Positions 4,978 to 52,597 of a DNA stretch of 64,000 bases are shown here, piece after piece. Origin of the DNA: Pecten maximus (lineage: Eukaryota). The DNA is taken from positions 41,416,001 to 41,480,000 of the forward strand of contig NC_047021.1 in NCBI RefSeq assembly GCF_902652985.1, in the 5' to 3' direction. Both the position numbers and the translations under genes were made by a program. Every line of letters starts with the position of its first letter. The stretch's first letter is position 1. The notes under the pieces were generated by a model, which searched no databases, had not been told where the DNA came from, and saw nothing but the letters and a program-made list of their open reading frames with translations.

Positions 4978-5044
4978 ATGCCTCGACGGACAGGCAGCGC
5001 CGGCATCTTTGCAATATCAATAGCACTAATGGTTTACCATACAG
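4978..5044 (+). CDS. Gene A exon 1, signal peptide MPRRTGSAGIFAISIALMVYHT
   Basis: ATG, basic n-region, hydrophobic h-region; donor ACAG|gtgtgt in phase 1 matches exon 2. Confidence 0.65.
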
Positions 5045-6166: not shown

Positions 6167-6215
<49 letters not shown>

Positions 6216-9200
6216 CTACTCCCCACTTGAATTTTTTCTGCTCCATCAATGTATTGATAGTATCGGTAAAATCATAGTCGGTCTTGTTAAATGATCTTAA
6301 TATCTATTGTATCTTCTATTAAAACAATAATTAAATATTGTATATCATAATTGCAAATAATCTTATAGGGAAATGGCTTTAAATAAGAGCATACTCTTGT
6401 TGCCAAATCCCTAATTTCCAATTATTGTATATATTGACCCATGTATTGTATATACCATTGATAATAAAATACTGTTTAAACCAACCAATTTAATTTTCCG
6501 GATTTCATTGAAATATGATTTCCTTGAGACACACAAACCCCTATAGATTTCCTTAAAATGCCACCTACACACCTTGTATACTCTCTAAAGACATACTCTC
6601 TTAACCTGTTTACTGATTTCATTAAAACATATTCTAAAAAGCCACACTTCTGATGTTATTGAATCATATCCCAATTTCATTGCAACTTTCTCAAAATAAA
6701 ACCCCACTACTGACTTCATTAAAACTTCCTCTTAATAAATCCTCAACTACTAATTTCAATGAAACATTATGATACTCTCCAAACCACACTACTAATTCCG
6801 TTGAACATACTCTCCTCAAGTACATTACTGACTGCATTCAAACATACTCTCCAAACTACACAGGCTACTGTTGTTAATACCTAATCCAGAAAATAGATAG
6901 ATCACTATTACTATCATTCTGTTTGAATTTGACGCCCTGTGACAAAATTTGATCTGTTAATTCTTCCTCGGCAAAAATATTTTAAACAAAATATGTATAT
7001 ATATAATAAATGTGCAACGTTCGTTGCATTAAACAGTAACTGAACCGCGTTATCTAACATCCCACACTGCTGTTGACTATCTAATGTTTTTTACAGAGAT
7101 ATGACTGCAGTTCCACAGACATCGACGATGAGTACTGCTTACAATCCCAGAAGATAACCTACCTCAAGTTTACCTACAACCATACCGGAATCGCCTCGTT
7201 TAGTCCACATGTTAGACTCTCCGTCAGCGTTCAACATAAAGAGGCCGATGCCGTTGCTTCACCTGAAGGTATGTGAATTATAAATAAAGAGTGGCAGTAT
7301 TACTGGGTTACTCTCGACCACGATGTCTCAGATATCCACGATTCAAACCTTCACGATTTATTGCATGGAATGTCTTTTTGTCTTCGCTTTCCTGTGGTCT
7401 CAGTTCGTTCTGTTACAAAGCCAACATGGTTTTGTCCAAGATTTGCCACGATTTCCATCACTTCTACTTTAGTAATCTTATGGACGTTATGATACGCTTG
7501 GTCACGTTCTTTTCGGCCTTTTCGTTCATAAATTTAATTGAGCTTTCGCTTTCCTGCATTGATGGCCATGATTTAAACTAGATTACCATGCTTTACTTTT
7601 TCATTCGGTCCAGATATATGTGGGTTATAATTCGTTAAAACATATATTGCCCCTCTTTTGTTAAAAAAAAAAAGAAAAAAAAAGAGGGGTGGGGGGTGGG
7701 GGGTGGGGGTGGGAAGGTAATGAATCACCTCTTGCAGGCTAGTATCTCTAATGATATGGGACATTAATGAACAACGCTTATTATACATCACGTGTCCCCA
7801 TTTGAAGTTACGAGTTTCTAGCACTGGCTTCGTCCCTTGAAGCTTTTGATATAATTATCCTTATATCCTTATTGTATATTCTTGTGGAATCGTTGTGAAA
7901 CCTTAATGAATCGGTTTCTTAAAGTTAGGGATTGGGGATATACCTCTCTATATCAAACTGCATTAGAATCCTTGAAAACAACATTTTGTTGCAGTCTCAA
8001 CTATGTCTTTTATCCAAATTATTCATTCTTTTCCTTGTACTATTAAAGGAGGGGTATAGTCCTATCGGGATATTGTTTTCCACAAACGTGCAATTATAGA
8101 AATATTGATTATAAAGAATCCCAAACCGCTTTTGATCAATCTTGAACATCCGCTTCTGTCTCTGGTGTCAACATCTTTACACTGCCACACCATTCTATCT
8201 CCATTCTAAATTTAAAGATCGCATCCATGCTCTGATGACGATATAAATGATCATGGCGCTACAAGTCCAAACATATGAACACAAAATATTGTCGCGTAAT
8301 TAGTTAAATATATGACAAGGACTCAGACCCAGACTTCAACAGACTATTGGCATACCCATCAAACAATCTGTGTCCCTCTTTTGGCCGACTTATTTATCTT
8401 TTCATACGAGACTTATTATACTAAATAACTCATCGGAATAGGTACAGGAGACTAAGTCCTTCAATTTTACCTGTACAATTACCAATGATGTGTTATCGAA
8501 AAAAGCTATATTGACCATATTTATCAGATATATCCTGTATATTTTATAAATCAAGGATACTACAGTCGCTAACCTCGGTCTTGACTTACAATATAATCAA
8601 CAGGACCAGCTTACTGTTAAGCCGTATGATAAGTGACGATTCTTGCTTCATCTCTATTGATAATTTTCCATTTCTAGATAGTAACATCCCTGCATCCCCT
8701 ACATACAATTGGTTTTTTTTTTACATGTTCAAGTTCATTCGATATTCGAGGGATTTTGCTCTCTTTCATTATTTCCGTTATGTATATCACCTACTGCGGT
8801 AAAACCAAAAACAGAAGGTTTCGAGAGATGCTTGTTGATATACCTGGTGACACCCCTGTCACCAACACAGTTCCCATTTTAAGGATAAGACTTAAACCAA
8901 ATTCTACCTATAATTGTGTAGCTGAAGACACTTACCTTTCCACAACACCTAATCTTATTATTATTATTTTTCAATGGTATTCATGCAAGTATTTATGTTG
9001 TTTTGTATTGAGCCAGAAAAACGTATTCTTTTTCATTAGGACATTCTCTGTATGCCCTCCCCTAAATTAAGCGGAATTTCTTACGCTGGAGGATCTAGAA
9101 ATGTTAAGGTATGTTAGGCCCCATTACGTTCATTTACGTTTTACACGTTCCTTTACGCTCTCAAAAGATGTGGAATTGAATCGGCAGGATCGTGGCAAAA

Positions 9201-12200
9201 TTTTAGACAGGCAAAACGACCCTAACAATCGTCACAATTCCATAAAGTGTCCTCAAGATCACCAAGATTTCACCCCCAACGACGTCGTGGCCAAGTGTAA
9301 ACCAAGCATACTGATACTATATAGTTAGTAATATTTGCGGGGGAATTAGAGTTTGCTCTGTCAGCGGTCATTACTCACAATGCGAAAATAAATACTCCGC
9401 GAATATTTTACGACGAATGATTAATGTTTGTTGGAATATATAATTAAACACACAAACAGATGTACACATGTATGTCTCGCCGTGAACACCTTGTTTTTGC
9501 AGAATTTTAATGGGGTGGTATTGCGAAAAATTGGCTAACAGCGAACTAGTCCGACTTCATCAACCACGAAATATTGCGCCTCGGTTATGAATATTGAATT
9601 GATCATACCTCTCCTAGGTTTGAAGCCAAAAGAAGAACTAGACAACACGAGCCGTGTCTGATAGATGGGACGAAATCTTCTCAAGTTCAGTCCGAATACC
9701 AATCCTTCTTTTAGTAGGATTCAGATTCGTTTGCAGCAATTTAGATACATCTTTATCAACCATGTCTCATATTGCTACATATAGACAAAGTCATGTTCAA
9801 GTTGTAATTGTCGTTACGAAGTTATTTGAATCGCGTTGATCTGGAATCGTTTCGACAAGAAGTTAATAGCGGTGTTTAGTTTTGAGGAGAAGTGACGAAG
9901 GCGTTAAGCAGCGGTTTAGTGTACCAGGTACGCCTTCCATTGTCAATACTAATACACTGACCATGTTGTGATTTTTCCTCACTACACGACTCTTTGTGGT
10001 AGTTTTGTGCTCTCTTTAACTATTCTTTGCCCATCCTTGTATTTATCACCTGTAATAGATATTTGTCTTTCCCTATGGAAATCTTACCTCCTTCTCCCTT
10101 CACATTGTCTTTCCCTATGGAAATCTTACCTCCTTTCTCCTTCACATTGTCTTTCCCTATGGAAATCTTACCTCCTTTCCCCCTTCACATTGTCTTTCCC
10201 TATGGAAATCTTACCTCCTTCTCCCTTCACATGGTCTTTCCCTATGGAAATCTTACCTCCTTTCTCCTTCACATTGTCTTTCCCTATGGAAATCTTACCT
10301 CCTTTCCCCCTTCACATTGTCTTTCCCTATGGAAATCTTACCTCCTTCTCCCTTCACATTGTCTTTCCCTATGGAAATCTTACCTCCTTTCCCCCTTCAC
10401 ATTGTCTTTCCCTATGGAAATCTTACCTCCTTTCCCCTTCACATTGTCTTTCCCTATGGAAATCTTACCTCCTTCTCCCTTCACATTGTCTTTCCCCTAT
10501 GGAAATCTTACCTCCTTTCCCCTTCACATTGTCTTTCCCTATGGAAATCTTACCTCCTTTCTCCTTCACATTGTCTTTCCCTATGGAAATCTTACCTCCT
10601 TTCCCCCTTCACATTGTCTTTTCCTATGGAAATAACCTGCTTTCGCTCCTCATTTGTCTTTCCCTTCGGAAATCTTTCCTCACGCCCCTTCACTTTAAAG
10701 TAGACTTTATCTGGTGGAGGATATGTCGAGGCATGTTAAATCACTGTTTATGGGTTAAAACATTTTACATAATACTGGAGGTAGAAAATGTTCCTGACGT
10801 TGACGTTGAAGATAGCAAATGCCGACACTTCTTGACATAATATCATGTTTCGTCTCTGATGTTGTTACAGGAGCATATGATGTCCTTTTGTTTTTGTTTA
10901 ATGTCTTCTCTTTAAAGTTCTCTTTCATTTTCATTTTAATTATGATTTGTGTCCTCGGGCCCTGATGGCCATGATAAAATTTGTGGTATGCATTTCGCTG
11001 AAAAAAAAATAATAAAAAAAAAAACAATGTCAGCTAATCCGCCAAATCTCACTTTAAGATGTGTTGCTGAGCTCTCAATACACTGGATAATCTTACATGA
11101 TCCATTTGGTAAGATATATATTATGTGACCCCCCACCCCCAACCGAAAGTCAAAGTACAGCAACCCAACAGGAAATATTTTTTACGTAACTTCCTAGTAA
11201 AAATCTCCCCTGTTACAAGTCAACAGAGTGTGTCTTGTCATTGAAGATTTTGTTTTGTAGTGAGGTTGCATATTCAAAAGATTCCACTTGCACTGATTAT
11301 GACTGCTTGAAGCGAACAAAAAATATGATGTCAGTTGCGTGTAATTTTGTGGTGAAATGAAAATGAGGCATCGCCTTACACACTTCGCCGAAAGTACAGC
11401 GCTAGTTCAAGACTTTTCTCTCCGCTGGACTGCGCTTATTAAAACACATCTGTATTTTCGAAGCGAAAGCGAACGGATAATTGAAGCAGACATTCCTTTC
11501 TACCTAATTTGAGCGTTTTGATGATGAAGATGGTGGATATCAGAATGTTTACACGCATTGAATTTGACAAGAAACACAAATCATTTACGTTTCAAGGGGT
11601 ACACTTAGACTACTTACAAATTCTTAAGAACTATTGTAGTAAAATTATATTTTCTGTAGTTTCGGTTAAATACCTAGCAGGTTGTGTTAGTGTTAGGGTT
11701 GATATGGTCTCGTGTTTAATAGGCTGAGTAGATTTGGATTTCAAAGTGACTTTGGCTCAAATGCGTTTATAGCCATTCAAATTTTATTTCTTCTGATTTG
11801 CCCTTACAATGGCGTGAAATCTTGGCATGAAAAGATGCTCTTAGTCAGTATTGTTACCAGTCATGCCGATGTTTTACTTCCTTGTACCCAATAACGTTGA
11901 ACATATGAGTTCTTTTACCAAAGTGTATTATCCCCCTTTGTTTATTTTCAGTTTCGGAAATCACACGAAACATCTTGGCCATAGGTGTAGCGATAGGATT
12001 TATAGTATGTTTTGTCGCAGTGAAAAAGAGAGAACATTTAAAGAATTGCAAAGAATATATGGAATGTATAGCCTGCCTTCCATGCGCTTTATGTGAACTG
12101 ATATGCACGGCATGCCGCTCTTTAAAGAATAGATGTCGTGACTGTGTGACGTCAGTGGATATTGACTGCAGTCAGCCATTGGTTTGTTGTCAGCCTCGTT

Positions 12201-15200
12201 CTCAGGAACCAAATGCAAGAGACGCCCCCACACCCACCGTACACTCGCAAACAACAGAATTTGGAAATTATGTAGCAGGTAGGAATTTTGTGCTTATTAA
12301 TAATGATGATGATTAACATCCGCTGATTAAAAATAATTCAGAAACGGTATGCTAACGGTAACATTCCTTCAAGGCTTGACGCGCTGAACTTATTCGCTAG
12401 TATGATTTCATTTACAATAGTTTCTGTGCAATGTTTTCCAATTTCACCAATTTGAATACGCTAAAATAAATATGTTTGCAGTATGTCCCGATTGCCTCAG
12501 TATATATCGTTATGTTAAGGCTGCATTCGTTACAATCTTCCAGAATACACTGATACCCCATGTACAGGTCTGATGTGTTTACGAGAAAATCACCTTCACG
12601 ATACCACTGCATAGTCGGACATGTATTAACTATGTTCCAATTGATGTGTAAATGGATCATTGATATTTTATGAATGATAATTTCCCCAAAACGCTGAAAG
12701 AACAAAAGTTGATTTAAATTATCGTACTCCGACGGTGATTCTATTTTTAAAAATGTAAACCCGTGCAAAATGACGAGGCACAAAACACCAGGTGATCTGG
12801 ATGGGTAACCTTCCTATAAAATAATGTATGGTTCTGTCAAATTCATGTAGTGTCACGCCCTGAGAAATTCGTAACAACGGAATCCAAGGTTTATCAACGT
12901 ACATCGAGCACGTTGATATAGAAATACAATACATTGAACGTAAATTTCTAGGAAGGTCCCGAGGTCCAGCATAAATTCCCTCTATGGTTTCACTCAACCT
13001 AACATGACGATGGATTAGATTTATAAAAACGTATGTATATACATAGTTTCTTTTTAATACTCCCTTATTTTGTCCTATTTGTAATTCAGATTTCGATGAT
13101 ATAACGACTGAGGAATCAGCACATCCTTCAGCAGCCCCCACAGACAATGGATGGGCCCCTCCCCCTTACGTAGCTCCTCCCCCTGACGAGTCCGTTCCAG
13201 AAGCGCCACCTCCTTCATATTATGACGTCATCACAGGAAGTGTTAGTGTGTCTAAAGCATAATAGTCAGTATTATGCGTTTTTAACTTTAATTTGAAATA
13301 TGTTGGCTGCTTTAATAAACCTGAAATATTCTTGTTCTGCAAATGAACACAGTGCAAAATGACAGGTTTTCGACCATCGCTGAAGAAAATCAGAAACATG
13401 AAATATGATCCAGATATCAAATGAAATGGAGATCAATGCGTTGGGAAGTGTTGGCAAATATCATTTGCAGGTACATTCCAAAAATAAACATTATAATCAT
13501 AGGGCGCATGTACAATGTAAACTTTTCAGGGTTTCTTGTAGCGTTTATGTTGTACAAGATATCGTATTCTTGGTCTCCTTGGTTGTATTCATAAGATATT
13601 TGTTTCATTAATGTCTTTTTTATAAACTTATAATATTTTTTTTTATTATTTTAAAGGTTTTAGTATTTTATGTTCTTTTTGTATTTTTTTTTTTTTTCTT
13701 TTTTGGATTTTAATATTTTAATCATTCTTTAAAATAGTAAAAGAGATCTTGCTCCTGATGATATTATCTGTGTTTCTTTATTTATCCGTCCACGTCATCA
13801 ATCAACAAGCGGTTTGTATAATCATAAAACTTGACATCATTTAAATGTTTCATCCTGACATCACAAACGTGTGTAGCTAATATATATTCTAGTGTTGGCA
13901 TATAAATACTATATATATATATGTAAATAAATATGCAAAACTGGCAATTGCAGAAATGTGTGCAGATTTTACAATATTTTGTTAATCATATCAAATTAAC
14001 GGCATGCTTATTACTGTTCAACGAATATTTGATAGAAATCCATATAAAAATGAACATTCACAAAAAACATTCGCAAACTACTTTTTGTGTATCATCATTT
14101 CCGTGGTCCAGATTTGAACAAGTGATGAAAATAGTCCCGGCCAGAGGTCACCGCGTCAACCAATCAAAACGTTTTTAGAGTTTATTCAATGTATGCCAAA
14201 AACTGTTTGCTATTGTTATGGGAGTTGAATAATACCCACCTATTGTGGTAGAAACTAGATATACACAATGTGCTATTATGTATTATGTAAAATGTTATTT
14301 ATTGGAAATTTTGTTAATTATAAATTGAAAAGTTGTTGGTAAAGATGTACGTTTGATATGATTCCCACTATAAAAACAATGTTATTTGTTTTTAATAATG
14401 ATGATATGTGATTATGACAAAATTATATTGCTTTAATTGTTTTATGGTTTTGAACTCATTTAATAAACGAATATATCTCAAAACCACATTATATGACTTG
14501 ATATCTACAAAATGTGATATAGTTTATTATTCATTTCGTATCGTAAATTGAATTCATTTATAGTATTATTGTGTCAGTTTACAAATGTGTATGATTATAT
14601 CTTTTATATCACTGCTATGTTTAACTCAATCGAATTCAAATTAGACGTATTATCTGCTTCTCTGTGATACTCTACGATACAATGCAATAGTGCATCGCAC
14701 AATATCGTAGATAAGCGGAAATTACAAGTATAATTTTATTAGATTCTGTTTGACTCAGATTTTATATAACTATGTTTGTATTTTCTTAATCAAAATGAAT
14801 ATGTATTTTTGCAATTTATCTCTACTTAATTACTTCCATCACTTGTAAGATATATACCTTATTTATGAAACATTGTACAAAAGACCAATGGTATTAACAT
14901 CTTGCAATACATATTGCGAGCTAGATACAGTATCTAAGACTGATTTGTCCTTCTAAGACTTGTCAGTGCTACTGAAGCTGAAGATATTTGAGGCAACGAA
15001 AGATGCTCACTGCTCATTTATTATAACATTGTGAAACATGTGTTTAACATTTTGTCAACAATTGTTATGTTAAAAAATAAATAATGTTTGTCGATGTTGT
15101 CTTTCTAGTTTTGTTATGTATGTTAACGTCAACACGTTCAAAACGACATTTATTCTCATTCTCCCATGTTGTCTTTTTTTACATAAACAATGGATCGTTA

Positions 15201-18200
15201 AGATTCGACGAAGAATAATGGAAAGAAGGGAAAATGATGTTTATAATATCAGAAATAATCCAATACCTGCTGTTTATATTATCCGGAATCTTCGAATATC
15301 CGATGCTTATATTATCTGGATTTTCCAGCTCCTTGATGTTAATATTATTATGAATATTCAAATACCGGAAGTTTATAGCATAAGAGTAAATGATAGTTTT
15401 ACTATCCGGAATACTCTTAAACCCGATGTTTATAATATCCGGAATACTCTTAAACCCGATGTTTATAATATCTGGAATAGTTAATTGCCTGATGTTTATA
15501 CTATCCGGAATACTCAAAACATGATGTTTATATTATCCGGAATACTCAAATACATGATGTTTATATTATCCGGAATACTCAAATACATGATGTTTATATT
15601 ATCCGGAATACTCAAATACATGATGTTTATACTATCCGGAATACTCAAATACATGATGTTTATACTATCCGGAATACTCAAATACATGATGTTTATACTA
15701 TCCGGAATACTCAAATACATGATGTTTATAATATCCGTAATAGTCCTATGCTTGCTGTTTATACTTTCCAGAATACTCCAATACCTTGTGTTTGTAATAT
15801 CCCGAAAAGTCCAATTCTTGATGTGTTTCAAATTAACAATGGTATTTTGATTATTGCTTTATACCAGTTTTGAGAATAATGCAAACAATTCATGATAAAA
15901 GCACACGATTTTTGTTTACTCTCTGTTATTTTTTAATTGTTTCTTCAGACTTCTATACTTTTATCTAATCACTATCGCTGTTGTGTATTCAAATATAGGC
16001 TACTTTCCAAAAATAGTGTACACAGTGCAAAGCTAGCGATGTTGTGTCCGTTCCATAATCTACGACATTTTCAAATTAGAATTTACACCTGCCTATGAAT
16101 TTACGGTAACACTAAAACCAGTTATATCTATAATTTACCAATTATTTTGATATGGATAATTTCTAGAATAGAAGATTCTTTTTGAAATTGAATCTGAATG
16201 TATCAGTTTATTAACTACAGTAGCTATCGATCCGCGTTCAGACAAAATACCACAGAAGATTCTTTTTTAAATTGAATCCGAATGTATCAGTTTATTAACT
16301 ACAGTAGCTATCGATCCGCGTTCAGACAAAAACACGTATTTTATTTTTTGCTTGTTATTTACAAACATTGGCGATGACTACGCTCCATAACATCGTTATC
16401 AACAACCTATTCAGGTAATTATCTTTGAATTGTATTTGATGTTTTGATTGTATTTAACACAAATTTTGATATTCAATTACTGTAAACTAACTTATTTTCA
16501 CGACAACTTGATTTCGCGTTTTCAAGCCTAACCTTTTTTTTGCGGCGATTTAGAATGAAAATGTCCTACTGTATCTGAGATTGAAACTATTTTGCGGCAA
16601 TTAATTTTCGCGACTTTCAATCCCCCGCGAAATACGCGAATATTAATCGTACGCGAAAATAATTTGGTTTACAGTATTACGCATTCACTTTGTATTTCTT
16701 CAATGCAAAATCTCGCTGTACAACAGGCTGGCTATAAACTACCGAATTAGATGTATTATCTGAAATCATTGAACACTTATAATTTTAAAAGTCGAACCTT
16801 TTTATCTGGAAGTTAGTAGGCTTGTAAAGAATGAAAGTAAGCTCCCGAGTATTTAAGATAACATAGTGTATTACATTTTTTGTTTTTGTCCCAACAAATT
16901 AGAATTTTGACTTCGAGTTATCAGGGTTCGAGTCTAACTGGTCATAATTCCCTGCTAGAAGAGATATAAACATCCCATTGCCGGTTGTTAAGTAAAAGTA
17001 TCACATCATTTTTCAAAACAGCGTTTTTTATCTGATATTAGTCACACTTTCTCGAAATGTATCGATTAAAGATTGATAGTAAACGGTTTACTAAAACTGC
17101 TAAGTTGATTTACTAGATAGAAATGTGACAACCACAGAACAAACTAATAAAGCGAAATGATATACTATGTTAGGATTATTAGGGGAGTATCCTGCAATAG
17201 AATAGTGATAAGTTTGATGTAATTCACTTGAATAATTAATTTATTATTTTCGTTTTAATAATCTCTCTTTAATAGTTTGTTGCTCAGCGCTATAACTCGT
17301 ATAAATACTTGTATTCTTGTTTGCACTTGAACTGTAGCGCCTCCATTGAAAGCGAAAAAGTTGCATTCAACAAATGAATGTATCCATAACTTAACTTCAA
17401 TTACTCCACGGAGTCACAGCCGATACATATCTGTTGTAGAAAATGTAGCAAACATTGACTACCGGTGGAACACAGTGTAAATTAATTAAACTCAAAACAT
17501 CGTCACTAAACATATCTTAAAGACATATGATCTAAAATATATCCTCATAAAAATATCTTTCGTTTTGATTGGTGTAACTTTATAATTTGTAATAAGTAAC
17601 GTATGGAGGTTTCATTTACCTTGATATTACGATTTTTTAATGTTGAAAACCTGTAGATATTTATTAACGGTACGATAATAATTGGTAAGCGGAAACAATA
17701 GTCATTATCTCTTTATAGACAGTTTTTGAGATTGAAAATCAATACGATGTATATGTATTTTTCCAACTTGGGAGTACTTTCCTTGAAAACTGGACAGAAA
17801 TATTTTTCACATGAAAATCGTAGACAATATGACTTTAACAAAACAATTGTTTTACTTCCTTGCATTTTGTTTCCACTTGCAATTGATATGCTATCTTTTT
17901 ATAGATGAAATTATGTTTATCTTGTGGGTGGATAAATATACAATTGAAGATATTGAAAATAATAATAATGAAAAAAAATAATAATACGAAAAGGGGGGAT
18001 AACTGAAGAGGTTGTTTAAGTAAGCAAGAAGACACATGGGGTTGTTTGATTCACAACGCTGATTTGTTTGTATTTGCATCCAACTGTCAACAAATATATT
18101 TGTGTGGGTAACAGTCTGCTTTGCTTTGCAAGAATTACAAATGAATTATCATAATGAAGTGAGTATCATGATGAATTGATTATCATAATGAATGGATTAC

Positions 18201-21200
18201 ATAATGAATTGATTATCATAATCAATGGATTATCATATTGAATGGATTATCATAATGAATGAATTATCATAATGAATGGATTATCATAATGAATAGATAA
18301 CGATAATCATTTTCGGCCTTGACAAACGAATATTCTTATTTGAAAACTTTTGTTTTATATTAGTTTCAGGTTTCAATGTCCTTCCTATCATACTGATTCT
18401 TGGTGTTGTCGGAGGAGGCGGTGCCTTGATAAAACACAAGCACGGCTTGACGTGTTTACGCGAGACACTGGGAGCTTTATGGGAATGTCTGAATGATAGT
18501 GTGTGTTGTATCATAAAAGCTGTATCATGTGAATCGTCCAGAGCAGTACAGGAGGACACATCTAGAAACAGAACTGAACATACTGATATAGCCATTACGT
18601 TCGAACCTGGCGTGACATTGTCTCGTCACAACAGCATGCTTTCACTTGGTAAGTACAATAATAGCATATACATGTATGTATTCTTTTTTAATACTGCTTT
18701 CTCTTACAACAATTTATCTCAGTAAATTTATTGATAGAAATTATGAATCATATGATTTTGTATATATACACAGAGTTGTGTTCACGTAATTGCTGTTGCT
18801 GTAACCCCCCTTTCATGTTTCGAAAACATCAATACAATGCATTTTATCGAAGCCGTTAAAACTTAATGAGATGCGTTTATCTGCATATAAACAATATGAA
18901 AATCCAACAAAACCCAAAACCCCATATTTCACCATTGAGAGATAGTCCGAATTAATATCATATCATAGATCTGATTATGCATTGTTTACGTAATTAGTAG
19001 ACATTGTCTGATGTAAAAGATGCCTGCAACTGATGAAGAACCTAATTTTCATGATTACGAGAGATTCATATTTATGACGAGTACTGGGAAGTTTTATAAT
19101 CATCTTGACCTAATATTGAAACAATCGATGTGTTCTGCGTGTATTGCTATACCAGGAAGCCCTGTTGTTTGACCCTGGCTTTTCATTTTGAGTGCATCAC
19201 ATAATTTGGAGTTGACCTAGATTGAAATAGCAGGTGTCGTCGATGAAACGCTTATCCGTCCGAAACCCATGTCCGTTTTCCTCTTACAAAGCGATGTGTA
19301 TGTTATATTCATAGATGTATTTTGTTCACATCTTCTTCCTTTTATAAACGGTGGGATTATTTTGTGTGTAATATTTCTCAATAGTTGAATTCCGTTAGCA
19401 TGAATTTTCTTGCCTTCTAAACTATTGTCTCCTTCCACATTTTTCTTGAATGAAACTTTAACTTAATTGTTTTCATGTGCATGTCTTGAATATGAATCCT
19501 CAATACAAATTCTTTGTAAATGTCTCGTTTTTAATTACTTTACAGGCATTCTAGCGAGTGTGATACCAAACAATTCAAACAATAGATCACGTGCAAATGA
19601 CAATGCAACTGAGGACACGTCGAGAAACAGAACTGAAGAACCGTTTTTACCTTCTTCTGATACTGAATCTTACACGACTCTATCAGAAGACAATAGCCTT
19701 CTATCGCTAGGTATGTAAATGTTACAATTGTCACTCGGTTGATCAGTCAAACCAATATTTTCAATACTGTTTTTTTGTATTAATCTTTAAGTTGATTTTT
19801 CCTTAATAATTGTTTACTGGACGCCAAACAATACAACACCAAACCTTCACTCTTTAGAAGTATTGTATTATGATAGCAATTGACGAAAGCAATGTTCCAC
19901 TTCTGTCGAAACCAGGAAAAGATATGGATTTAGTTCAAATATTTTTCATGTAAATGTAACAAATATCTGATTAGTTTTGCTTTTGTATTTATCATTTCAT
20001 TTCTATTTCTATTTGCAGACATTGATGATGGGTTTACAGAGGAGCCCTTGGACCCTTCCACACCCCCTACCGATAATATATATGATCCACCTTCTTACGT
20101 TGTCCCTCTCCCTGATTCGATTGCAGCTCCTCGAACACTTGCTGTCAACGATATAGTTGATCCTCCTCCTTACGTCGCCCCGCCCTCACCCGAGGAACCG
20201 CCTCCGTCCTATTATGACGTAGTGACAATGAATAAATAGACTGATGAATTGACTATTTCATACATGTCAGCATATATTGTGTAATATCAAAATATAATTT
20301 ACTTAGTAATATTAGGTGTGAAAATGCGTGAAAAAGGTATGTGCTTTTAGTTAGTGAATTGAATAAAAAACTTAATGTTTCCTAAGTTAACTGCCATGTT
20401 TGATACTGAGAGGTAGATTCAAAAGGGGGAAATAAATTTGTAACATAACTTCAAATAAGACTGTTTCGCCGTTATTACTGAAATATCCAGATGAGAGATG
20501 CAGATCCTCTCTGACCTTTTGTTACTATAGGAAAGCGAAGTAGATATGTTTTCTGCCCAAATCTTAAAATGTGGTTAATCTCTCCTAAAAAATATTTTGT
20601 TTTTTTTGTTAGTTTGTTTATTTATCTGTCATTGTGGTATATAAATAATAAACTCTACAGTGTAAAGGTATATACATATGTGTAATTGTTTAAATGCATG
20701 TTAGGTATTAGTTATTTATTGATATTCCAGATAGAGTGCATCCATAATTGAAAAAAAACTCTCAGCAAATCAGAACTGAATCTGAAATGTGGAAATCTTC
20801 CATTAACTGATGCATACTACACTGATACAATTGACGATTTGTGTTGTTTATTAAAACGTGTTAAGACAATTTTTTTTTAAATTTCAACTATGTATTGTTG
20901 TATGAACATGCATTAATGGTGAATGGTATTGAAACTTCAATACTTTTTACGTATGAACTAATACGAGCGTATCTATCTTCGGATTGCAATATATTGCAAA
21001 TATTCATTTTTTTAAATTTAAATTAGACAAAAAATTTGAGTTGCCAATATGGCGTTCATTAAGTTGAACAATGTTTATAAGTTCCATGTATGAAATTTAT
21101 CTAGTTTTAAACCTTTTCTTTCTGGTGCTTTATCTGTAATATGGTGTTATGCTTTATACTTATACAATATAATGTGATTTTCCGCCAACAGAATATTCTA

Positions 21201-24200
21201 GTTTTGTCTGCGATAAAAATAAATCTTACAGTACCATTAAACATAATGTGATTTATTGTTCTTTTGGAAATCAAATGTTCTTATTCCTGAGACAATACGA
21301 ACATCTGTTCTCTAAGAATTTTGTTGATGTACTCGTTTACAACCACTCATTTCAACAACCAATAGACATGTTTATGGATTGGATTCTCGGAGGAATCATA
21401 ACATGTCTAAAAAACGTTTTGCATCTCCCGTGCAACGATACTCATTATATATACAATAATACCACTAATTACACAATCGATCATCAAAATTGTTTATTGT
21501 TATTTAGATATAAAAACAATTGATTGTTGTTTTGTCGACGCATTTTCCAACATGGCGCTTGGCATACTAACTTACTTTGAGCACCTGGATTTCCCTCGTA
21601 CATTTTTAGGGTATTTGTGCTTAGTCATATTGTGCTAGTTTTCCACTCGTTTTATCGATCTTTAGTTGAAATTCATTATTATTTGTTTTCGTTGATAAAG
21701 CCCTTTGTTTTGACTCCCGTATTTACAATGGCTTTGTTTCATTTTGGCATCCAAGTTATTGCGGTCCTTGTTTGGTGGCGTTGTTTTTTTTTTTCAGTTG
21801 GGTCGTTGTTTTTCCTTGAAATGTTTTGATATTTAGTTTTAGGCAAAAGGGAAACTCTTCGCCTTCTATTATATAACCCCGCAAGATGTCTTATTTTTAA
21901 ATTTTTACACCATTGCTTCATTTCTTGCGATATCTCTTCCCGAGTTTTTTTTTGAACACATTAAAACTATCATTATACTATCTATTCACCATTTCCCCTT
22001 ATCCTACTTTGTCTTTCCGTCACATTTAATACTAACTTTCCTTATATCGTTAAGAATGCGCCCTTTTAATAATACTATTGATTTTATAATGATTTCCTGA
22101 TATATAGGGAAAAACTTTCCGTCAATATATACAGCCGACTAACACTGATATTAACAGAGCTGAAATCTTACCCCCGAAACGTCTGGCTTTTATTTTAGAA
22201 GGACGTTTAATACATTACTGTAATTATATAAGATATATTGAATTAGATATATTTCCCTATCAAAATATCTGTTTTTAGCCTAACTTAATCACACTGGTTT
22301 CATTGACAAATTGCATTTTCTCGTAGTCCAAAGTCACGAATGTTTTATTTTCAATAGAATAGGCTGCAGGCACTATGTACGGGTAGGGGGTATAAAAGAC
22401 ATGGAAAATCCAGATAAATCCAATGGAAAAAGAAGTGTGAACAAAATAGATTTTCAAAAATTGATCAACTGACGCCATTTTGGTAAACAATATTGCCATT
22501 CGAAAGAGTAGTCTTTATGCATTTAGAATATATAGTAGATGATTGATTTAGCTATGCATTTAACAAATTTCTGTCTCTCTGTACGTGTTCGCATTTTACC
22601 TTTGATTTATAAAGTTTGAGTAAAAAAAGTTTTATATGTATATCGATATTCTCTGCTTGATTTTAATACATTCAGTCAGACAGGATTGTCCTGTTAAGTT
22701 AATGTCATGTTTCCATTTATAATTATTTTACAATGATGTGCATGTCGTTTCTCTTGTTTGCTTGTAAATCTTATACTAATGGTATTATGTAGAGGATGTT
22801 AATTAGTTCTTTTGTAAATGTTTGTAATTATATTTTGAACTGTATTTTTCAATGGCATGCAAACAATGAGAATTTCTCACGGAGTTGACCCATAGGTGCC
22901 ATTAGTGTGGAGTGGCGTAGTGAATCAACCATTGGTATCCGACGATGGGTATTCTTGACATACTCATTGAATAGGTTTGAGGGCTTGGATTCAATCGGAT
23001 ATATTTTATCATTACGGCTTAACTATTTTCAAAGGAAATTGCGTTATCATTGTGTCCTACGTGTTTACATTAATAAATACTATGTGAAGTTTTCATTTCT
23101 AAATATTCCCCTTCACGTTTTCAGAATTTAATGTCGGACACGTTTTCGGGATCGTATCTGGCAGTTTGGTTATATGTGCTTGTGCTGGAATTCTGAAAGC
23201 AATTTGTGAAAGGTTTTTCGAAAACTGTAGAGAATCTTGTAATGAAGTGTGTGGATGTATTCCCTATATCCTGTGCGGCATAAGGGAATGCATAGCAGGA
23301 TGTTTCGGTTGTGAAAAGAAAGAGGATGCTGATCCTGAAGAGAATACAGAAACTGTTGTGACACAGGAACCACTGAGAGTATATACTATAAATGATTCTG
23401 TGGTGAATCGGACCAGTGCTGTCAGTTTGGACACAATAGACTCTCTAGGTAAATCTAATCATCCTCGAAAGTCAGTTCGTAGTAAAGTCATAAATATAAT
23501 AATATCACAACATCCACATTATAGTTTCTTAATCATAAAGTATATCTGTTTGTATACAAATATTCTCGTTTATTCAAAACAATTACCAGAGACTTAGTTT
23601 ATAGAGGTCCCCATTATTACATTTTCGATTAATGATATACTGAATTGCAATTACAAAGTTATTTTATATCAAGATATTAAACAAAATATAAACTGTTCTG
23701 TCGTTTTTTGTATTGCAGAGGAAAGAGATTCTTTGATAGGAGGCAACGGGCGGAATGAGGATAATGAGTGGGATCCACCTGATTACGTTCCCCCTATGCC
23801 CCCTACTGCTCCCCCTGCTGACTCATTGTCGGATTTATCGCCTCATTACGTAGCCCCGTACCCTAGTGCGCCTCGTTCTGACTCATTATCGGAAGCACCC
23901 CCTCCTTACGTTGCCCCGTCGCCAAGTGCGCGTCGTTCTGACTCAATATCGGACGCACCACCTCCTTACGTTGCCCCGTCGCCAAGTGCGTCTCGTTCTG
24001 ACTCATTATCGGAAGCACCACCTCCTTCCTATTATGATTACGTGACCGATAATTTTTCGTAAGAAATTGGACCTTTATAAAAGAATCACGCTAAAAATTG
24101 ATACGACTAGTTATTGAACGTTTTATGATAAAAATGTCACGCAATAAAGAAAAGAAAACTTTAGTGGTACAGACAGCATAGCTGTAAGCATTAACTTTGA

Positions 24201-27200
24201 ATAGTATCAGAACAGTATGAAGGCTGTGTTTGAGTCCAAAGGAACGTTTTGCTTATTTTTGGTCTTTACAAGGTTAAATTTTGATGCACTTCTTTTACGC
24301 TTTTAACGTAAGGTTCTTTAAGCTAGGATGTTTAATTAAAAAAAGAATTATTGGCTCTGAGAGCCCAGTCATGACGTCACATCATGAAGTCAATAATAAT
24401 ATAAACAAACAACATATTAACACAGTGCCTTTAGAATAAACTAAGAATTTGATACCTGCTTAGATAGCCAGTTTAGTATAACAATAATACTGATGTGCTA
24501 TATCATCACACCGTAGAAAAATAGCGTTATTAAAATTGTGAATGCCTTTGATGTGTACAGGAAGTGATAATGATACTATTTCTTTATCTTAGGTAGCATA
24601 TGCCTTCATCAGATGTTCAAATCGCCATTCCGCTCATTATCGCTTTTTGAGAAGTGGTAAAGTATCTTTGATCTTAGGTTGATATCGCTGTTTCTCAGAA
24701 ATTACTGTATACGTCTTTTAGAAATTTCAAAAAGGATGTTCAATTTTTATGACAGATATGACGATAAAATGGTTGACAGGCGACCATTTTGATTTCTGAC
24801 AGTTAAATATTGTTATTGCTATATTTCAGAAAGTGATATTGATTTTAACCATTCTGTTCAATTTTGCCTTTTATCTGAAAAAAGGGCGAAAGTCTACAAC
24901 CTTTGATTTTGGTTGTTATTAATAAGAAAGGTTAACATGTGATTTTCTCATGCTTTGCTTGTTTCGCATTTTAAAACTGATCAGAAGAACGAAAATTTGA
25001 AAAACATCCATATTGTGTTTCGAAAGTTGAATTTTGTAATTGGTATATTACAGAAAGTAGACCATTAGTCAAAACTTAATTGAATAGGTTCATTGTGGCC
25101 CTTAATGGTAAAGAACCACAAAGAAGTCATATATCGTGAATACAGCAGTTGAAAAGAAAATGAAACAGTTGAAAAAAAGAGAAGAAATTAAACTCGCATA
25201 TAACCAAAATAGATCATAAGAGGGTGTGTGCTAACATCCGTTTGTGATCTTTTAGTCATTGCGATGCTTGCCAGTTCACATTAAATCACATTGGAAAGAG
25301 ACTGCCGTCAATCATTTCAATGAATGAGATTATCTACTGATGTGCCATCAATTCGTTGCGATATATATGAAATAATGTTGATTATGTTATAACAAATGGT
25401 TTACATTTAGAATGCAAATCAATCGGTTATTTTGTCACATCGTTTGAACTTCCTATCAATCACCAGAGTTTGCCTTACAGGGACCACGGAACCAAATGAT
25501 TTCCCATAGACGGAAATGTTAACGTTTACCACTGTACTGCTTAAATAGAGTTTTCAACACTGGTCCACTAGCCATAATTTTGAAGAATGTCATCTCAGAA
25601 ACCTGTAAATAGAATGATTAAAAATTCTACCAATTTGATTTTTTTTTTATATGGGGGCCGCCATCTTGTATTGAATTCAGCACCAAAAATTCGTCTAAAT
25701 TTACAACAAAATACACACTTAATTAACTCCCCCTGACAAAAACAGGCTAGGAAAAATATAACTTTTTTCTAATTATTTTACATTTACATGTATTGCCCAG
25801 CCCACACATAAAACTTTGGAAACTTCTCTCACTTAAATATCCAATCAGTAGGCCCCGATGCATTCACCTTCCTATTAAATCTTCTGCCCAAACGGGGAAA
25901 ACCCACAATCTATTTTTGATTTGGTTCTGTGGCCCCTACAGGATACCCAACGGTCCATACTTGTATACCCATAATATATCATTTAACGTCGGCATTTATT
26001 TATTTTAATATACTCAATGTAACACTTTACAAATGTATACAATAATAGTATCACAATTAAAACAATGTGCGTACATAACATGTTTTGGTATTAACACTTT
26101 CTATATACATTTAGGTTGAATAATATCATGGACGATTAGCCATTGTTTTGATTATGCGTTCAGTGCTGTTAAACTTGGTAGTTTCTACATGTTTAAAACG
26201 CATATCCTAGATACTTCTGCCCGAAACTGTGTGAGACATTATTCGCAAAAGTATTGCGTTTAAACGCATTACATTTATATTTTTTACATTTAACATTTGG
26301 CACCAATGGGCTTCCGTAGAATCCACTTAGGTTTTTAGATCCGAGGCATGTTGTTCGATCCAAGGGGCCGATTGTGTCTCTCAGGAAGCTGGGATCACAG
26401 ATCACCCGCTGCTGCCCTTGTTGTGTCTTTAGGGAAGAAAAGTTAACCAAATTGCTCCGGACAGCATACGGCAAGCCTTCCTATATTGTTCAGTGAGAGT
26501 GTTGACTCTGGCTGTTTATGGGGCGATAAACTCAATCCAATGGTAAACTATATGTATATATATTAAGCGTGATATTTAACGTTTTAACGTTCAATTCACA
26601 AATACATTCGTTGCGTATTGATAATTAATGTATTTCCACTTTAAACATGTATTAACACATATGATGTTAACTTATTTTTGTATGACTCATTAGTTACCGG
26701 TGGTAGTGAATGTTATGTTGCAATTAACTTGTTCTTATTAATTAATTGATAGTCGAATGTCAGTTTAATCAGCACTTAGTGCAATTCTTAAGGAACATAC
26801 ATCTAGATGTTTTGTATCTTGATGTATATTTCACTTTTGTCAATAACAATAGCATTGTTTTCCCTTTATGTTTTATGATACTCTAATGCATAATTTTACT
26901 AGATTTTACATTTGATAATTACTGGCTATTATATGTAAGTACATGTATGTTACTTTAAATAAAGACATGACGCAAGTGATGCATTGTTTTGTTGTGATAA
27001 TATAATCAAACATGATATTGATGTAGAATATGCTGTGTTTTATACCTCACCAATGAAACTATGTCGGGGATTGGTTGAGAGCCGTCACATGTCATGGAGA
27101 CTAAGTCTTCCCGCGTGCGTAATATATCCCCCACGCGGAGCAACTGGTAGGTTAAAGAGAGTTATCGTTTTTTATTTGGAATTCTCCGTGGTTTTCTGAA

Positions 27201-28934
27201 AACAAACATCAACAATGTATGGTAGACCAGCCAGAATGTTTACGTTGCTTTCATCTCGCTATATTTACCATTGTATGGCACTGCCACTATATAACCCTAC
27301 CAATTCAGTTGCGAGTTCACCAGCTTATTTACTGCCAACTGAAATTTAAATTTGAAAATTTCAAAAAAAAATCTAGTGTTTAATACTTTAAAATTGGTGA
27401 AAAAAAATCAACGTTTCAGTGTATTCGAAAACAGGAGGGGATTGTTGCACGTTAAAACAAATAATATATTAATTTGGAATTAATCATAGATGTTTAATGT
27501 ATTTGTTATATTAGGAAATGTTTATCAAAATCTTTTTGAAACTCCATTGAAATGAACAGTTAAGAAAATATAACGAAACGTGTATTAATTCCGTAAACAA
27601 TGCTAAATTAATCATTTTAAGAATAAAAATGTGTTTCATCAAATCTGCAGAAGGACGAACCAGATGAATGAGTTTTATCACAACATTCTCAGTATTAGAA
27701 TCCAGAGCAGAACGGTTGTTGCTCCTTATATGGAGACAATTTCACCATGATGACATAAATGATGTTACATACATGTTCATTCCAAAACATTCGCTTCAAT
27801 CACATAATCAGAAAAACCTCCACATTTAAGTCCGTGATTTTATTTGAATGTGCGAAATATATTTAGTAGAATGCACGGCATTATCAACAGGGTGTGTGTT
27901 TCATAAAAATATCTTTACACAGGGAAATATAGAATATTTAGTGTATGATATGAGATTTATACATTCCAGTACAAGAACGCATAATGCTTTTAAAATAACT
28001 ATAGATTTTTTTTTCAGCAACTCTTATTGGCAACATCCTTGGAGGTCTTGTTGGACTTATATTTTTTGGCTGTGTCATTGCGGTCTTTTGGAATGTTGTG
28101 AAAAGATGCTACGGAGACCTTGGCATGCCCTGTCGTGAAGCATGTGAAGGTATTTGCATTTTCCTGGGAGGTGTATGCAATCAAATATCAGATCTATTGG
28201 ACTGTGGATGTGTTACTAGACGACGTGCAGAACCGACAACATACAGAGACGATACAAGACACGAAACAACAATATTTTCAGCTCAACCGCAACCACAGGA
28301 ACAGGAAATAACTATTACGATTGCCACTTCCTCAAATCTGTCACGTACAGTCAGTCTGGACTCGTTATATACTCTAGGTAAGTCGAATGGAGGCGGCTTC
28401 ATTCGCGACAATCATATCCATAATGATATTCCAGTGTTCGCAACAAATGGTAGCTTGGTTAGTAGAATAAACCTTGTATAAAGTATCATTTTTTACACCC
28501 TGAAGTTATTACATTTTTAATAAATTACTGATAAATAAGATGTCTGTGATGCAAGATGGCCTCAAATCCTATGAAATAAACTTAGTTTAGGTTTTAAAGC
28601 ATATTAAGCATGAACCAATTCTATTTCGGGGTTTTCAATGTATGATTCCCTTTATCCAATTAATAGGTAAAACTTTACCCCCTACATGTACCCCCACCTA
28701 AATCCATGAAATTTCGGAGGCAAGGCTCCTTCATATTTTTTTTTTTTTATTGTTTATGCCTTTTCATTTTTGCTTACAGATTCCCTTCCAATGGAACTTG
28801 TGCCTTCTGCGCCCCCTGCTGACAATAACTCGGCTATCCTTCCTTACCCTGATCGTGATCCACCTCTGCCGGATTTACCACCTCCTTCTTACTATGACGT
28901 CGTAACAGAAAGCAAACGTCAGTACAGCTTATAA
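4978..28934 (+). CDS. Gene A: type I membrane protein with CUB-like ectodomain and four tandem TM/Cys-rich/PPxY 3' cassettes (predicted isoforms 325, 380, 381, 330 aa if all join exon 4)
   Basis: Hand-built exon chain with canonical GT-AG sites and consistent phases: 4978-5044, 5491-5537, 5733-5924, 7097-7268, then one of four cassettes; all reading frames open. Confidence 0.7.
5491..5537 (+). CDS. Gene A exon 2 ((D)AADSVTLSELVCDSQ)
   Basis: Acceptor ttttacag, donor CAG|gtaaga, phase 1 to 0. Confidence 0.75.
5733..5924 (+). CDS. Gene A exon 3, N-terminal half of CUB-like domain (IYDIKDGDSLLIKWDG...YCRLGF...WTCFNIEKFRLYNCKFYIEIYK)
   Basis: Acceptor tttcag, donor AAG|gtaagt, 64 codons, phase 0-0; alternating hydrophobic pattern and Cys spacing resemble CUB domains. 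Confidence 0.85.
6170..6213. repeat. (CT)n microsatellite
   Basis: Direct reading. Confidence 0.95.
6480..6880. repeat. Degenerate ~40-bp tandem repeat (ACTACTGATTTCATTGAAACATACTCTC-like)
   Basis: Recurring TTTCATT(G/A)AA and CATACTCTC words. Confidence 0.55.
7097..7268 (+). CDS. Gene A exon 4, C-terminal half of CUB-like domain and stalk (RYDCSSTDIDDEYCLQ...LKFTYNHT...VRLSVSVQHKEADAVASPE)
   Basis: Acceptor ttttacag, donor GAAG|gtatgt, phase 0 to 1; N-glycosylation sequon NHT; homologous to the - strand exon 60236-60104. Confidence 0.85.
8150..8850 (+). mobile_element. Decayed Penelope-like retroelement reverse transcriptase fragment
   Basis: Frameshifted peptides QQTIGIP, PLLADLFIFSYE, SFNFT..NDVLS, IKDTT, DNFPFLDSNIPASPTY, FIRYSR resemble the PLE-type RT motifs (GIPMGTNCAPLLADLFL, YIDD, NFPFLxSNIP) as I recall them. 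Confidence 0.75.
10060..10695. repeat. 42/43-bp minisatellite (CACATTGTCTTTCCCTATGGAAATCTTACCTCCTTTCCCCTT), about 14 copies
   Basis: CACATTGT at 10101 and 10143; source of spurious ORFs 9968-10840, 10027-10635, 10317-10703. Confidence 0.95.
11952..12278 (+). CDS. Cassette 1 exon a: TM (ILAIGVAIGFIVCFVAV), KKR stop-transfer, Cys-rich segment
   Basis: Acceptor ttttcag, donor GCAG|gtagga, phase 1-1, open frame. Confidence 0.85.
13090..13262 (+). CDS. Cassette 1 terminal exon: DFDDITTEESAHPSAAPTDNGWAPPPYVAPPPDESVPEAPPPSYYDVITGSVSVSKA*
   Basis: Acceptor ttcag in phase 1; 2 PPxY; AATAAA at 13314-13319. Confidence 0.85.
15225..15830. repeat. 30-bp minisatellite (ATCCGGAATACTCAAATACATGATGTTTAT-type), degenerate at both edges
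   Basis: Direct periodicity; explains the four repetitive ORFs at 15116-15850. Confidence 0.9.
16170..16332. repeat. Recent ~84-bp tandem duplication
   Basis: AGAAGATTCTTTTT...GATCCGCGTTCAGACAAAA at 16170 and 16254. Confidence 0.9.
16478..16676. mobile_element. MITE with terminal inverted repeats (TA)CTGTAAAC...GTTTACAG(TA)
   Basis: TIRs TACTGTAAACTAACTTATTTTCACG / CGCGAAAATAATTTGGTTTACAGTA, internal TTTCGCG/CGCGAAA repeats, probable TA target duplication. Confidence 0.75.
18140..18310. repeat. 17-bp minisatellite (AATGAATGGATTATCAT) about 60 bp upstream of the cassette 2 acceptor
   Basis: Direct periodicity. Confidence 0.85.
18370..18648 (+). CDS. Cassette 2 exon a: TM (VLPIILILGVVGGGGALI), KHKH, Cys-containing segment
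   Basis: Acceptor tttcag (an in-frame alternative tag lies 6 nt upstream), donor TTG|gtaagt, phase 1-1. Confidence 0.8.
19546..19710 (+). CDS. Cassette 2 exon b (partial duplicate of the 3' half of exon a)
   Basis: Acceptor tttacag, donor TAG|gtatgt, phase 1-1; shares EDTSRNRTE and TLSxxNSxLSL with exon a. Confidence 0.8.
20019..20239 (+). CDS. Cassette 2 terminal exon with 3 PPxY motifs, ends EEPPPSYYDVVTMNK*
   Basis: Acceptor tttgcag in phase 1; paralogous to 13090-13262; AATAAA at 20362-20367. Confidence 0.85.
21250..21790 (+). mobile_element. Highly decayed Penelope-like fragment (RT remnant plus 3' GAGCACCTG-type region)
   Basis: FQQPIDMFM resembles FQQxIGIPMG; ACTTACTTTGAGCACCTGGATTT resembles similar segments at ~55040 and ~45530. 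Confidence 0.4.
23125..23448 (+). CDS. Cassette 3 exon a: TM (VFGIVSGSLVICACAGIL), Cys-rich segment, ends VSLDTIDSL
   Basis: Acceptor ttttcag, donor TAG|gtaaat, phase 1-1. Confidence 0.85.
23719..24062 (+). CDS. Cassette 3 terminal exon: 4 PPxY, PTAP and PSAP, internal 60-bp (20-aa) repeat, ends PPPSYYDYVTDNFS*
   Basis: Acceptor ttgcag in phase 1; AATAAA at 24143-24148. Confidence 0.85.
26300..26550 (+). mobile_element. Degenerate CORE-type tRNA SINE
   Basis: Aligns by eye with 52598-52886 (GATCCGAGG..GTTCGA head, TTGTGTCTTTAGGGAAGA..AATTGCTC core, GGCTGTT..GGGGCGATAAAC tail). Confidence 0.65.
28018..28377 (+). CDS. Cassette 4 exon a: TM (ILGGLVGLIFFGCVIAVFWNVV), KR, Cys-rich segment, ends VSLDSLYTL
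   Basis: Acceptor tttttcag, donor TAG|gtaagt, phase 1-1; CREACEGIC parallels cassette 3 CRESCNEVC. Confidence 0.85.
28780..28934 (+). CDS. Cassette 4 terminal exon: DSLPMELVPSAPPADNNSAILPYPDRDPPLPDLPPPSYYDVVTESKRQYSL*
   Basis: Acceptor ttacag in phase 1; PSAP and 1 PPxY; AATAAA at 28934-28939 overlaps the stop. Confidence 0.85.
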
Positions 28935-50877: not shown

Positions 50878-50992
50878 TCAATCCGCCAAAGCAAGATTTA
50901 TTAGATAAAATGTCGTTTTGTCGCGTTTTTTTTTACCGCGACAACACGCCAATATGACATTTCGAACACGCAAATCAACGTGCATGGAATGG
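50878..50992 (-). pseudogene. Possible rhodopsin-family GPCR TM1-TM2 fragment
   Basis: IPCTLICVF[frameshift]NVILACCRGKKKRDKTTFYLINLALAD* resembles the class A GNxxV..NLAxAD signature. Confidence 0.4.
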
Positions 50993-52430: not shown

Positions 52431-52597
52431 TGGTAGGTTGAAGGAGTGATAAAAAAAATACCCTGGCTCTCGACCTCTCTCTATATGAGCTGAAATCCTA
52501 ACACCAGGGTAAAGGGAAATTCCAGCCAGCCTGAGCCAGCACGATACCCTTTACTATTATACATAACTTATGTCTGTACATAACTAGTTTGAGGTTT

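Follow-up and report, generated by a model that had tools for sequence, protein, structure and literature searches.

A Pecten maximus gene with one CUB-like ectodomain and four alternative transmembrane-plus-tail cassettes that carry conserved PPxY motifs

The analysed window, a whole stretch of 64,000 nucleotides to which all positions below refer, contains the Pecten maximus gene LOC117330863, the exon at 5733-5924 being identical to that locus. The gene is laid out as a signal peptide and a CUB-fold ectodomain followed by four alternative transmembrane-plus-tail cassettes. We give about even odds (a probability of roughly 0.5) to the reading that the single ectodomain is combined with one cassette at a time, and that each tail recruits a ligase of the NEDD4 family through conserved PPxY (PY) motifs, likely leading the product to the endosome-lysosome route. 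Sequence comparison indicates that the PPxY motifs in the tails are real and old, and from the known biology of such motifs we infer WW-domain binding, ubiquitination and sorting of the LOC117330863 products.

Results and discussion

Gene organization

RefSeq models of LOC117330863 comprise four isoforms (X1-X4), and this four-isoform architecture is already public in the RefSeq annotation, without an assigned function. All exons lie on the forward strand. The coding part of shared exon 1 (4978-5044) holds the start codon and a hydrophobic signal peptide, exon 2 (5491-5537) starts the ectodomain, exon 3 (5733-5924) encodes its CUB fold according to the fold model, and exon 4 (7097-7268) ends it and provides the phase-1 donor common to the four cassettes in the RefSeq models. 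The four shared exons (4978-7268) joined to cassette 1, 3 or 4 gave products letter-identical to isoforms X4, X2 and X3 (XP_033745294.1, XP_033745292.1 and XP_033745293.1, respectively), and joined to cassette 2 they gave isoform X1 minus two residues, the acceptor in that model lying 6 nt upstream.

The cassettes are tandem duplicated multi-exon units at the 3' side of the gene, each with its own stop and polyadenylation signal; they share the same splice phase, and the reading frames of all four are open. Cassette 1 consists of a transmembrane and Cys-rich juxtamembrane exon (11952-12278) and a tail exon (13090-13262, with AATAAA at 13314). Cassette 2 has a transmembrane exon with tandem acceptors (18364-18648; acceptors 18364/18370), a middle exon (19546-19710) and a tail exon (20019-20239). 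Cassettes 3 and 4 each comprise a transmembrane and Cys-rich exon (23125-23448 and 28018-28377) and a tail exon (23719-24062 and 28780-28934); the stop of cassette 4 overlaps AATAAA, and its transmembrane exon had a single match in the genome search. Four separate genes, considered as another arrangement, were ruled out, as no signal-peptide or ectodomain exon is present between the cassettes. Among nine candidates scored in the genome with the cassette 1 tail as the query, no cassette array was found beyond LOC117330863 and its adjacent paralog. In the stretches examined at C7:43.46 Mb and C7:8.1 Mb, each relative has a single tail.

More distant family members lie on either side of the array. 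LOC117330861, with a single tail and two PY motifs, is about 60-55 kb upstream of the window, and LOC117330865, with a single tail and no PY motif, occupies 48537-48707 and 60105-60236 on the reverse strand. In Mizuhopecten the counterparts are LOC110465421 and LOC110465426; their adjacent locus numbers and the equal length of their contigs suggest that the array neighbourhood is syntenic in that genus. Two further family genes at C7:43.46-43.48 Mb are arranged head to head and have degenerate PY tails and a type-3-like transmembrane exon, and another is found at C7:8.13 Mb. In a distant relative from Dreissena (LOC127877631), the CUB-like domain is repeated several times in tandem, numerous isoforms are annotated and the C-terminus carries a PPPY.

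The window also contains other features. Two elements (1-175 and 46128-46320) have tRNA-like heads and a shared body and look by eye like SINEs; no tRNA was called in either by ARAGORN. Minisatellites at 10063-10696, 15390-15824, 18140-18298 and 50878-52497, with units of about 84, 33, 17 and 12 bp, create long spurious open reading frames. On the reverse strand, after the 12-bp repeat, a segment at 50850-50960 that ends in a stop presumably resembles the second helix of a rhodopsin-type GPCR.

Ectodomain fold and membrane topology

An AlphaFold2 model built on 19 relatives presents ectodomain residues of about 25-150 as a beta-sandwich (pLDDT mostly 75-93) in which conserved Cys residues are present. 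The top VIA rows for this model are all CUB, including Kremen1 CUB (Z 11.4, rmsd 2.3, 107 residues aligned), and its best Foldseek match is a spermadhesin CUB (E 4.6e-6). The ectodomain is thus, as a predicted fold, one divergent CUB-like domain. The Pfam CUB profile had no match in the six proteins at E<=1, nor in the 19 relatives at E<=0.1, and nothing above the cut-off in Pfam named either set. In the ESM Atlas, unnamed mollusc clusters were matched at 0.92-0.93 and CUB candidates at under 0.9.

Each cassette encodes one strong hydrophobic helix followed by a Cys-rich amphipathic helix. A second transmembrane span, which would place the tails outside, was rejected, as the amphipathic nature of the Cys-rich helix gives it a much lower score than the first span in 9/9 proteins on approximate hydropathy scales. 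The tails of this single-pass protein, with their motifs, should therefore be cytoplasmic, which supports the sequence-only reading on this point.

A Ser-rich element of the Arg-x-x-Ser...Ser-Leu type is present at 18625-18648, 23410-23448 and 28340-28377. It ends the transmembrane exon in types 2A, 2B, 3 and 4 (Pecten and Argopecten) and is absent from type 1, a pattern defined after seeing the data, and it is a possible phosphorylation site.

Tail motifs and their chance level

The six-frame scan and the joined translations confirmed the motif inventory of the sequence-only reading. The PPxY counts in cassettes 1-4 are 2 (PPPY 13158, PPSY 13209), 3 (PPSY 20087, PPPY 20162, PPSY 20201), 4 (PPDY 23775, PPPY 23898 and 23958, PPSY 24021) and 1 (PPSY 28881). 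P(S/T)AP is present in cassette 3 (PTAP 23802, PSAP 23862) and cassette 4 (PSAP 28803), with PSAA in cassette 1 (13125) and PSTP in cassette 2 (20054). Acidic dileucine motifs are found in cassette 2 (EDNSLL, 19686-19703) and cassette 3 (ERDSLI, 23721), and the tails end in PPPSYYDV followed by I or V in cassettes 1 and 2, PPPSYYDYV in cassette 3 and PPPSYYDVV in cassette 4. The first Tyr of this ending gives a further YxxPhi (YYDV) in cassettes 1, 2 and 4 but not in cassette 3, which had been missed. The altered sites of cassettes 1 and 2 had also been described as standing at the position equivalent to P(S/T)AP in cassettes 3 and 4. The equivalence holds among cassettes 1, 2 and 4, where the site immediately precedes the first PY; it does not extend to cassette 3, where PTAP and PSAP sit after a PY and within repeat units.

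Chance levels were estimated from 5000 composition shuffles per last exon; several motifs were scored, the p values are uncorrected, and the tandem repeat inflates the values for cassette 3. PPxY exceeded chance in cassettes 1-3 only (p = 0.003, 0.0004, 0.0004 and 0.19 in cassettes 1-4), and P(S/T)AP gave p = 0.005 in cassette 3 and 0.023 in cassette 4. The YxxPhi motifs, which had been counted among the sorting motifs, are at or near chance (p = 0.046, 0.27, 0.66 and 0.18 in cassettes 1-4). The dileucine of cassette 3 reached p = 0.038; that of cassette 2 lies in another exon, outside the last-exon shuffles. Given the shuffles and the comparison across cassettes, dileucine and YxxPhi were dropped as components of a code.

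Conservation of the cassettes and of their motifs

The adjacent upstream paralog LOC117330862 is a duplicate of the whole array with 70-80% DNA identity, in which cassettes 2A, 2B and 3 are intact, cassette 1 is broken and cassette 4 is absent. Its array lies between about 27 kb and 4 kb upstream of the window; the tail of its cassette 1 is frameshifted, and a broken partial ectodomain copy with a stop and a frameshift occupies the place where the transmembrane exon of cassette 1 is expected. In Mizuhopecten, isoforms X1 and X2 of LOC110465421 have one ectodomain common to two different transmembrane-plus-tail parts, and in an Argopecten model cassettes 1 and 2A and a truncated form of 2B follow one another in the order known from Pecten, chained rather than separated. 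In a 17-row tree the cassettes cluster by type across species, with support of 98/96 for type 1 (Pecten and Argopecten), 99/96 for 2B, 99/99 for the type-3 pair and only 86/86 for the 2A pair.

The sequence-only reading called for conservation of the motifs across species, and for PPxY this was found in the orthologs. Of the 11 complete cassettes across species (the truncated Argopecten 2B model was left out), all have PPxY, ten have two or more, five have P(S/T)AP and three have an acidic dileucine. Over six counterpart pairs, which are not independent, were chosen by us and give alignments that tend to anchor on the PY motifs, identical positions amounted to 44/45 for PY-defining residues, 50/61 for other prolines, 12/16 for P(S/T)AP and 180/302 for other residues; the P(S/T)AP positions are thus no better conserved than other prolines. 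Among 15 single-tail relatives (22 library matches minus 4 array proteins and 3 fragments), a PY motif occurs in nine and P(S/T)AP in none, which makes PY a trait of the family and P(S/T)AP a trait of the array. The six relatives without PY also indicate that the family can function without it. The tail types keep their own PPxY/P(S/T)AP profiles between paralogs and species. A point against is the cassette-2-like tail of Mizuhopecten isoform X2, which is without P(S/T)AP.

The cassette 1 tail is 82% identical to its Argopecten counterpart and 77% identical to that of Mizuhopecten; in the same two comparisons the ectodomain reaches 56% and 42%, and the transmembrane exon 37% and 32%. This rapid change of the transmembrane exon (32-37% identity) bears on a reading that we consider rather unlikely, namely that the tails are near-equivalent PY modules and that cassette choice changes the transmembrane helix and Cys-rich segment (with effects on partner or cargo selection, palmitoylation or membrane domain) or the tissue of expression. 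It agrees with local scores of transmembrane exons in Pecten of 220-417 within a type and under about 110 between types, with the terminal motif common to all tails, and with the report, in the available part of PMC11315911, that the transmembrane and intracellular part of LRP10 alone suppresses its target. Against it, type-specific tail sequence is preserved between genera well outside the PY core, including a 15-residue block of the cassette 1 tail that is unchanged in 3/3 genera, and the presence of P(S/T)AP follows the type.

Origin of the motif counts

The 2/3/4/1 counts mostly reflect duplication history, and the idea of the motif set as a designed gradient is not borne out, since cassette 3 owes its count to a tandem repeat, cassette 4 to a degenerated first PY and cassette 2 to a fusion. 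A 60-bp tandem repeat (23818-24027; 3.5 copies, 87% matches), identified by repeat finding and paralog comparison, multiplies the PY and P(S/T)A unit of cassette 3, and its units are also present in the paralog. The first PY of cassette 4 now reads ILPY. Cassette 2 is, by sequence comparison, a fusion of two older cassettes that combines a 2A transmembrane exon, orthologous to that of the paralog's cassette 2A, with a 2B remnant and a tail of 2B type. Relative to the unfused 2A/2B arrangement, which is seen in Argopecten, about 3.5 kb bearing the 2A tail are missing, and the middle exon corresponds to the 2B transmembrane exon minus about 130 nt in frame, the helix and the Cys-rich part being gone. 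EDNSLL is located in this remnant.

The site that reads PSAA, PSTP or PSAP in cassettes 1, 2 and 4 is PSAP in Argopecten 2A. PSAA had been described as an altered form of P(S/T)AP; the position is indeed shared with PSAP, but PSAA is a conserved state, unchanged in 3/3 genera, and not a decayed one. Two PY motifs are found in types 1 and 2A of every species compared, which makes two the likely ancestral count.

Selection on PY number may remain compatible with this history, as the counts are kept between counterparts: 3 and 3 in type 2B and 4 and 4 plus LPSY in type 3 (paralogs), and 2, 2 and 2 in type 1 (genera). These constant counts, together with the cassette 3 dileucine, which is kept in the paralog, and the additive action of Commissureless PY motifs described in the accessible portion of PMC12101832, speak for the strong form of the sequence-only reading, a selected four-step trafficking code composed of PPxY number, P(S/T)AP, YxxPhi and dileucine. 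We nevertheless judge such a code distinctly unlikely, given the repeat, the degenerated PY and the fusion behind the counts and the chance-level YxxPhi. Moreover, the cassette 2 dileucine, proposed as one of its elements, is absent from both 2B counterparts, and types 2B, 3 and 4 have no complete counterpart outside Pecten in the compared set.

RNA evidence and choice of cassette

The RNA evidence consists of contigs of four sequencing runs (X1, X7, X9 and X15) aligned to 4700-24500, a range that ends short of cassette 4. In these contigs all three shared introns are removed (joints 5039>5486 in runs X9 and X1 and 5922>7095 in runs X7 and X1), as are the internal introns of cassette 1 (12275>13087, run X1), cassette 2 (18647>19545, runs X15 and X1; 19708>20017, run X1) and cassette 3 (23446>23717, run X1). 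Run X15, which is on record as RNA, by itself contains fragments from exon 1 and from each of cassettes 1-3. A joint from exon 4 (7268) to a transmembrane exon was not seen among the joints listed (15 of 18) for the contigs over 4700-24500; direct splicing of each cassette to the last constant exon is modelled by RefSeq in Pecten and Mizuhopecten. In run X1 the cassette 1 contig carries 24 unaligned letters and a shared AG upstream of the acceptor. These 26 letters in total match in number what a 31-mer graph would produce were exon 4 also spliced to the acceptor at 18364, whose first four letters are the same, an indirect hint taken from length alone. One-at-a-time choice of cassettes by 3'-terminal splicing is therefore likely on the strength of the RefSeq models in two species.

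As each cassette has its own stop and a downstream AATAAA, competition between splicing and polyadenylation is our default guess for how a cassette is chosen. Docking/selector RNA pairing gave no conserved inverted match within the limited windows searched, and 0/8 intron pairs beat all 12 shuffles.

Two further observations concern individual exons. The remnant exon at 19546-19710 retains the phase-1 acceptor used by the paralog's cassette 2B; were this exon spliced directly to 7268, the resulting isoform would lack a membrane anchor. At 23309-23399, a run X1 contig differs at 11 of 91 nt from the cassette 3 transmembrane exon and probably derives from cassette 3 of the paralog and not from an allele.

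The least probable of the readings, in our opinion, takes the cassettes as leftovers of repeated partial gene duplication, with mostly one in use and isoform models that overstate switching. The high turnover of the array fits such a history: in the paralog cassette 1 is broken and cassette 4 absent, cassette 2 of LOC117330863 is fused, and the Argopecten model chains its cassettes. It is at odds with four open frames, with the internal splicing of cassettes 1-3 in RNA contigs, with their joint occurrence in run X15 and with the persistence of types across three genera.

Comparison with known systems

NDFIP1/2 have N-terminal PY motifs followed by three transmembrane helices. In LOC117330863 there is one span with C-terminal PY motifs, so that of the earlier proposal of a Commissureless/NDFIP-type adaptor with an ectodomain, the NDFIP part does not apply and Commissureless remains the best analogy. 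According to the accessible text of PMC5578492, the Commissureless/PRRG group is defined by cytoplasmic L/PPxY motifs, one of which is extended by acidic and hydrophobic residues. Such motifs are present in the LOC117330863 tails, and the likeness to Commissureless/PRRG4 covers the single-pass topology, two or more PY motifs, the last one followed by acidic and hydrophobic residues and, by analogy, predicted NEDD4 recruitment and lysosomal routing (PMC5578492 and PMC12101832, in part). LOC117330863 differs from Commissureless/PRRG4 by its signal peptide, its folded CUB-like ectodomain, the amphipathic Cys-rich segment, the P(S/T)AP present in some tails and the alternative transmembrane-plus-tail cassettes. 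No sequence homology to Commissureless/PRRG4 was found, nor any Gla match (Pfam, six proteins); PRRG proteins have a short Gla-type lumenal region without a folded, Cys-bonded ectodomain, in contrast to the CUB fold with conserved Cys found here.

A second resemblance is to LRAD3 (LDLRAD3) and LRP10/LRP3/LRP12, type I proteins with a small ligand-binding ectodomain (CUB in LRP10) and a Pro-rich PPxY tail, of which LRAD3 activates Itch via two PPxY (as cited in the accessible part of PMC11315911). LOC117330863 differs from this group in having one CUB-like domain only, no LDL-A, no conserved DxxLL and four alternative tails; Ldl_recept_a had no Pfam match in the six proteins or the 19 relatives, and the ectodomain is fully explained by one CUB-like domain. 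The pairing of PPxY with P(S/T)AP within a single Pro-rich stretch, seen in cassettes 3 and 4 and in type 2A, is shared with LITAF/CDIP1, ARRDC1 and viral late domains, as far as PMC5095921, PMC9105457 and PMC12789967 were available. Unlike in those systems, the motifs here are carried by a type I receptor of non-viral context that has neither a LITAF zinc domain (no Pfam match to this C-terminal zinc-binding monotopic domain in six proteins) nor an arrestin fold, and half of the cassettes lack P(S/T)AP. Shisa-like proteins and CYYR1 are also single-pass, with Cys near the membrane and several PPxY, but their N-terminal C*C*CC*CC module is absent here, with a CUB fold instead, and the CYYR1 profile touched only 1/19 relatives (E 0.004).

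For gene organization, the closest cases are Drosophila PGRP-LC, CG42235 and Pip, in which constant 5' exons precede tandem duplicated 3' cassettes chosen alternatively (PMC6191721, in the part available). In LOC117330863, as opposed to the PGRP-LC type, it is the ectodomain that stays constant and the anchor and tail that vary, and no docking/selector pairing was found within the limited windows searched. Taken together, the product most likely works like Commissureless or LRAD3 by analogy, and belongs to neither family.

PPxY motifs are not selective for particular group I WW domains, and WW domains are found in non-ligase proteins as well. The PY motifs could accordingly bind mainly YAP/Yorkie-, WWOX- or MAGI-type proteins or be switched by Tyr/Ser phosphorylation, making the product a signalling receptor and not a sorting adaptor. 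The Ser-rich element that closes the transmembrane exon in types 2-4, and not in type 1, would suit this view, which we regard as very unlikely because the pairing with P(S/T)AP and the acidic and hydrophobic residues after Tyr are typical of NEDD4/ESCRT ligands (PMC5095921 and PMC5578492, as far as accessible).

Proposed mechanism and significance

In the preferred reading, recruitment of a NEDD4-family ligase through conserved PPxY, the CUB-like domain or the transmembrane segment would bind a partner, the PY motifs would bring a HECT ligase of the NEDD4 family to the tail, and the receptor and its bound partner would go to late endosomes or the lysosome. The cytoplasmic parts are poor in Lys (6, 4, 2 and 2 in cassettes 1-4), which fits an adaptor that directs ubiquitin to a partner and not to itself alone. 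Tails carrying P(S/T)AP would also engage TSG101/ESCRT-I, leading to intralumenal or extracellular vesicles; a UEV-domain gene, a TSG101 candidate, is present in the genome. The tails would most likely form two classes and not four grades, with PY only in types 1 and 2B and with added P(S/T)AP in types 2A, 3 and 4. The number of PY motifs may add avidity, even though it arose by repeat expansion and loss. A more far-reaching version, possible but tentative, is a splice-switched trafficking menu in which cassette choice wires a CUB-like sensor to one of two routes, NEDD4 alone (lysosomal turnover) or NEDD4 plus an ESCRT-I late domain (vesicle release), with cassettes reshuffled by fusion and repeat expansion.

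No papers naming these loci were found, and this family was likewise absent from the topical literature covered, which lies outside subscription journals and whose supplementary tables could name loci. PY-tailed single-pass adaptors and arrays of variable 3' exons are each known, and the motifs alone are ordinary. What is unusual is that complete anchor-plus-tail cassettes form an array that is both conserved and reshuffled and that serves a single ectodomain, a combination not found in the literature searched. If the tails do not differ in routing, LOC117330863 would be an uncharacterised PY-tail receptor with duplicated last exons. If they do differ, the array would be a natural experiment on PY and P(S/T)AP valency in NEDD4/ESCRT sorting, and it would point to an unstudied family of bivalve receptors.
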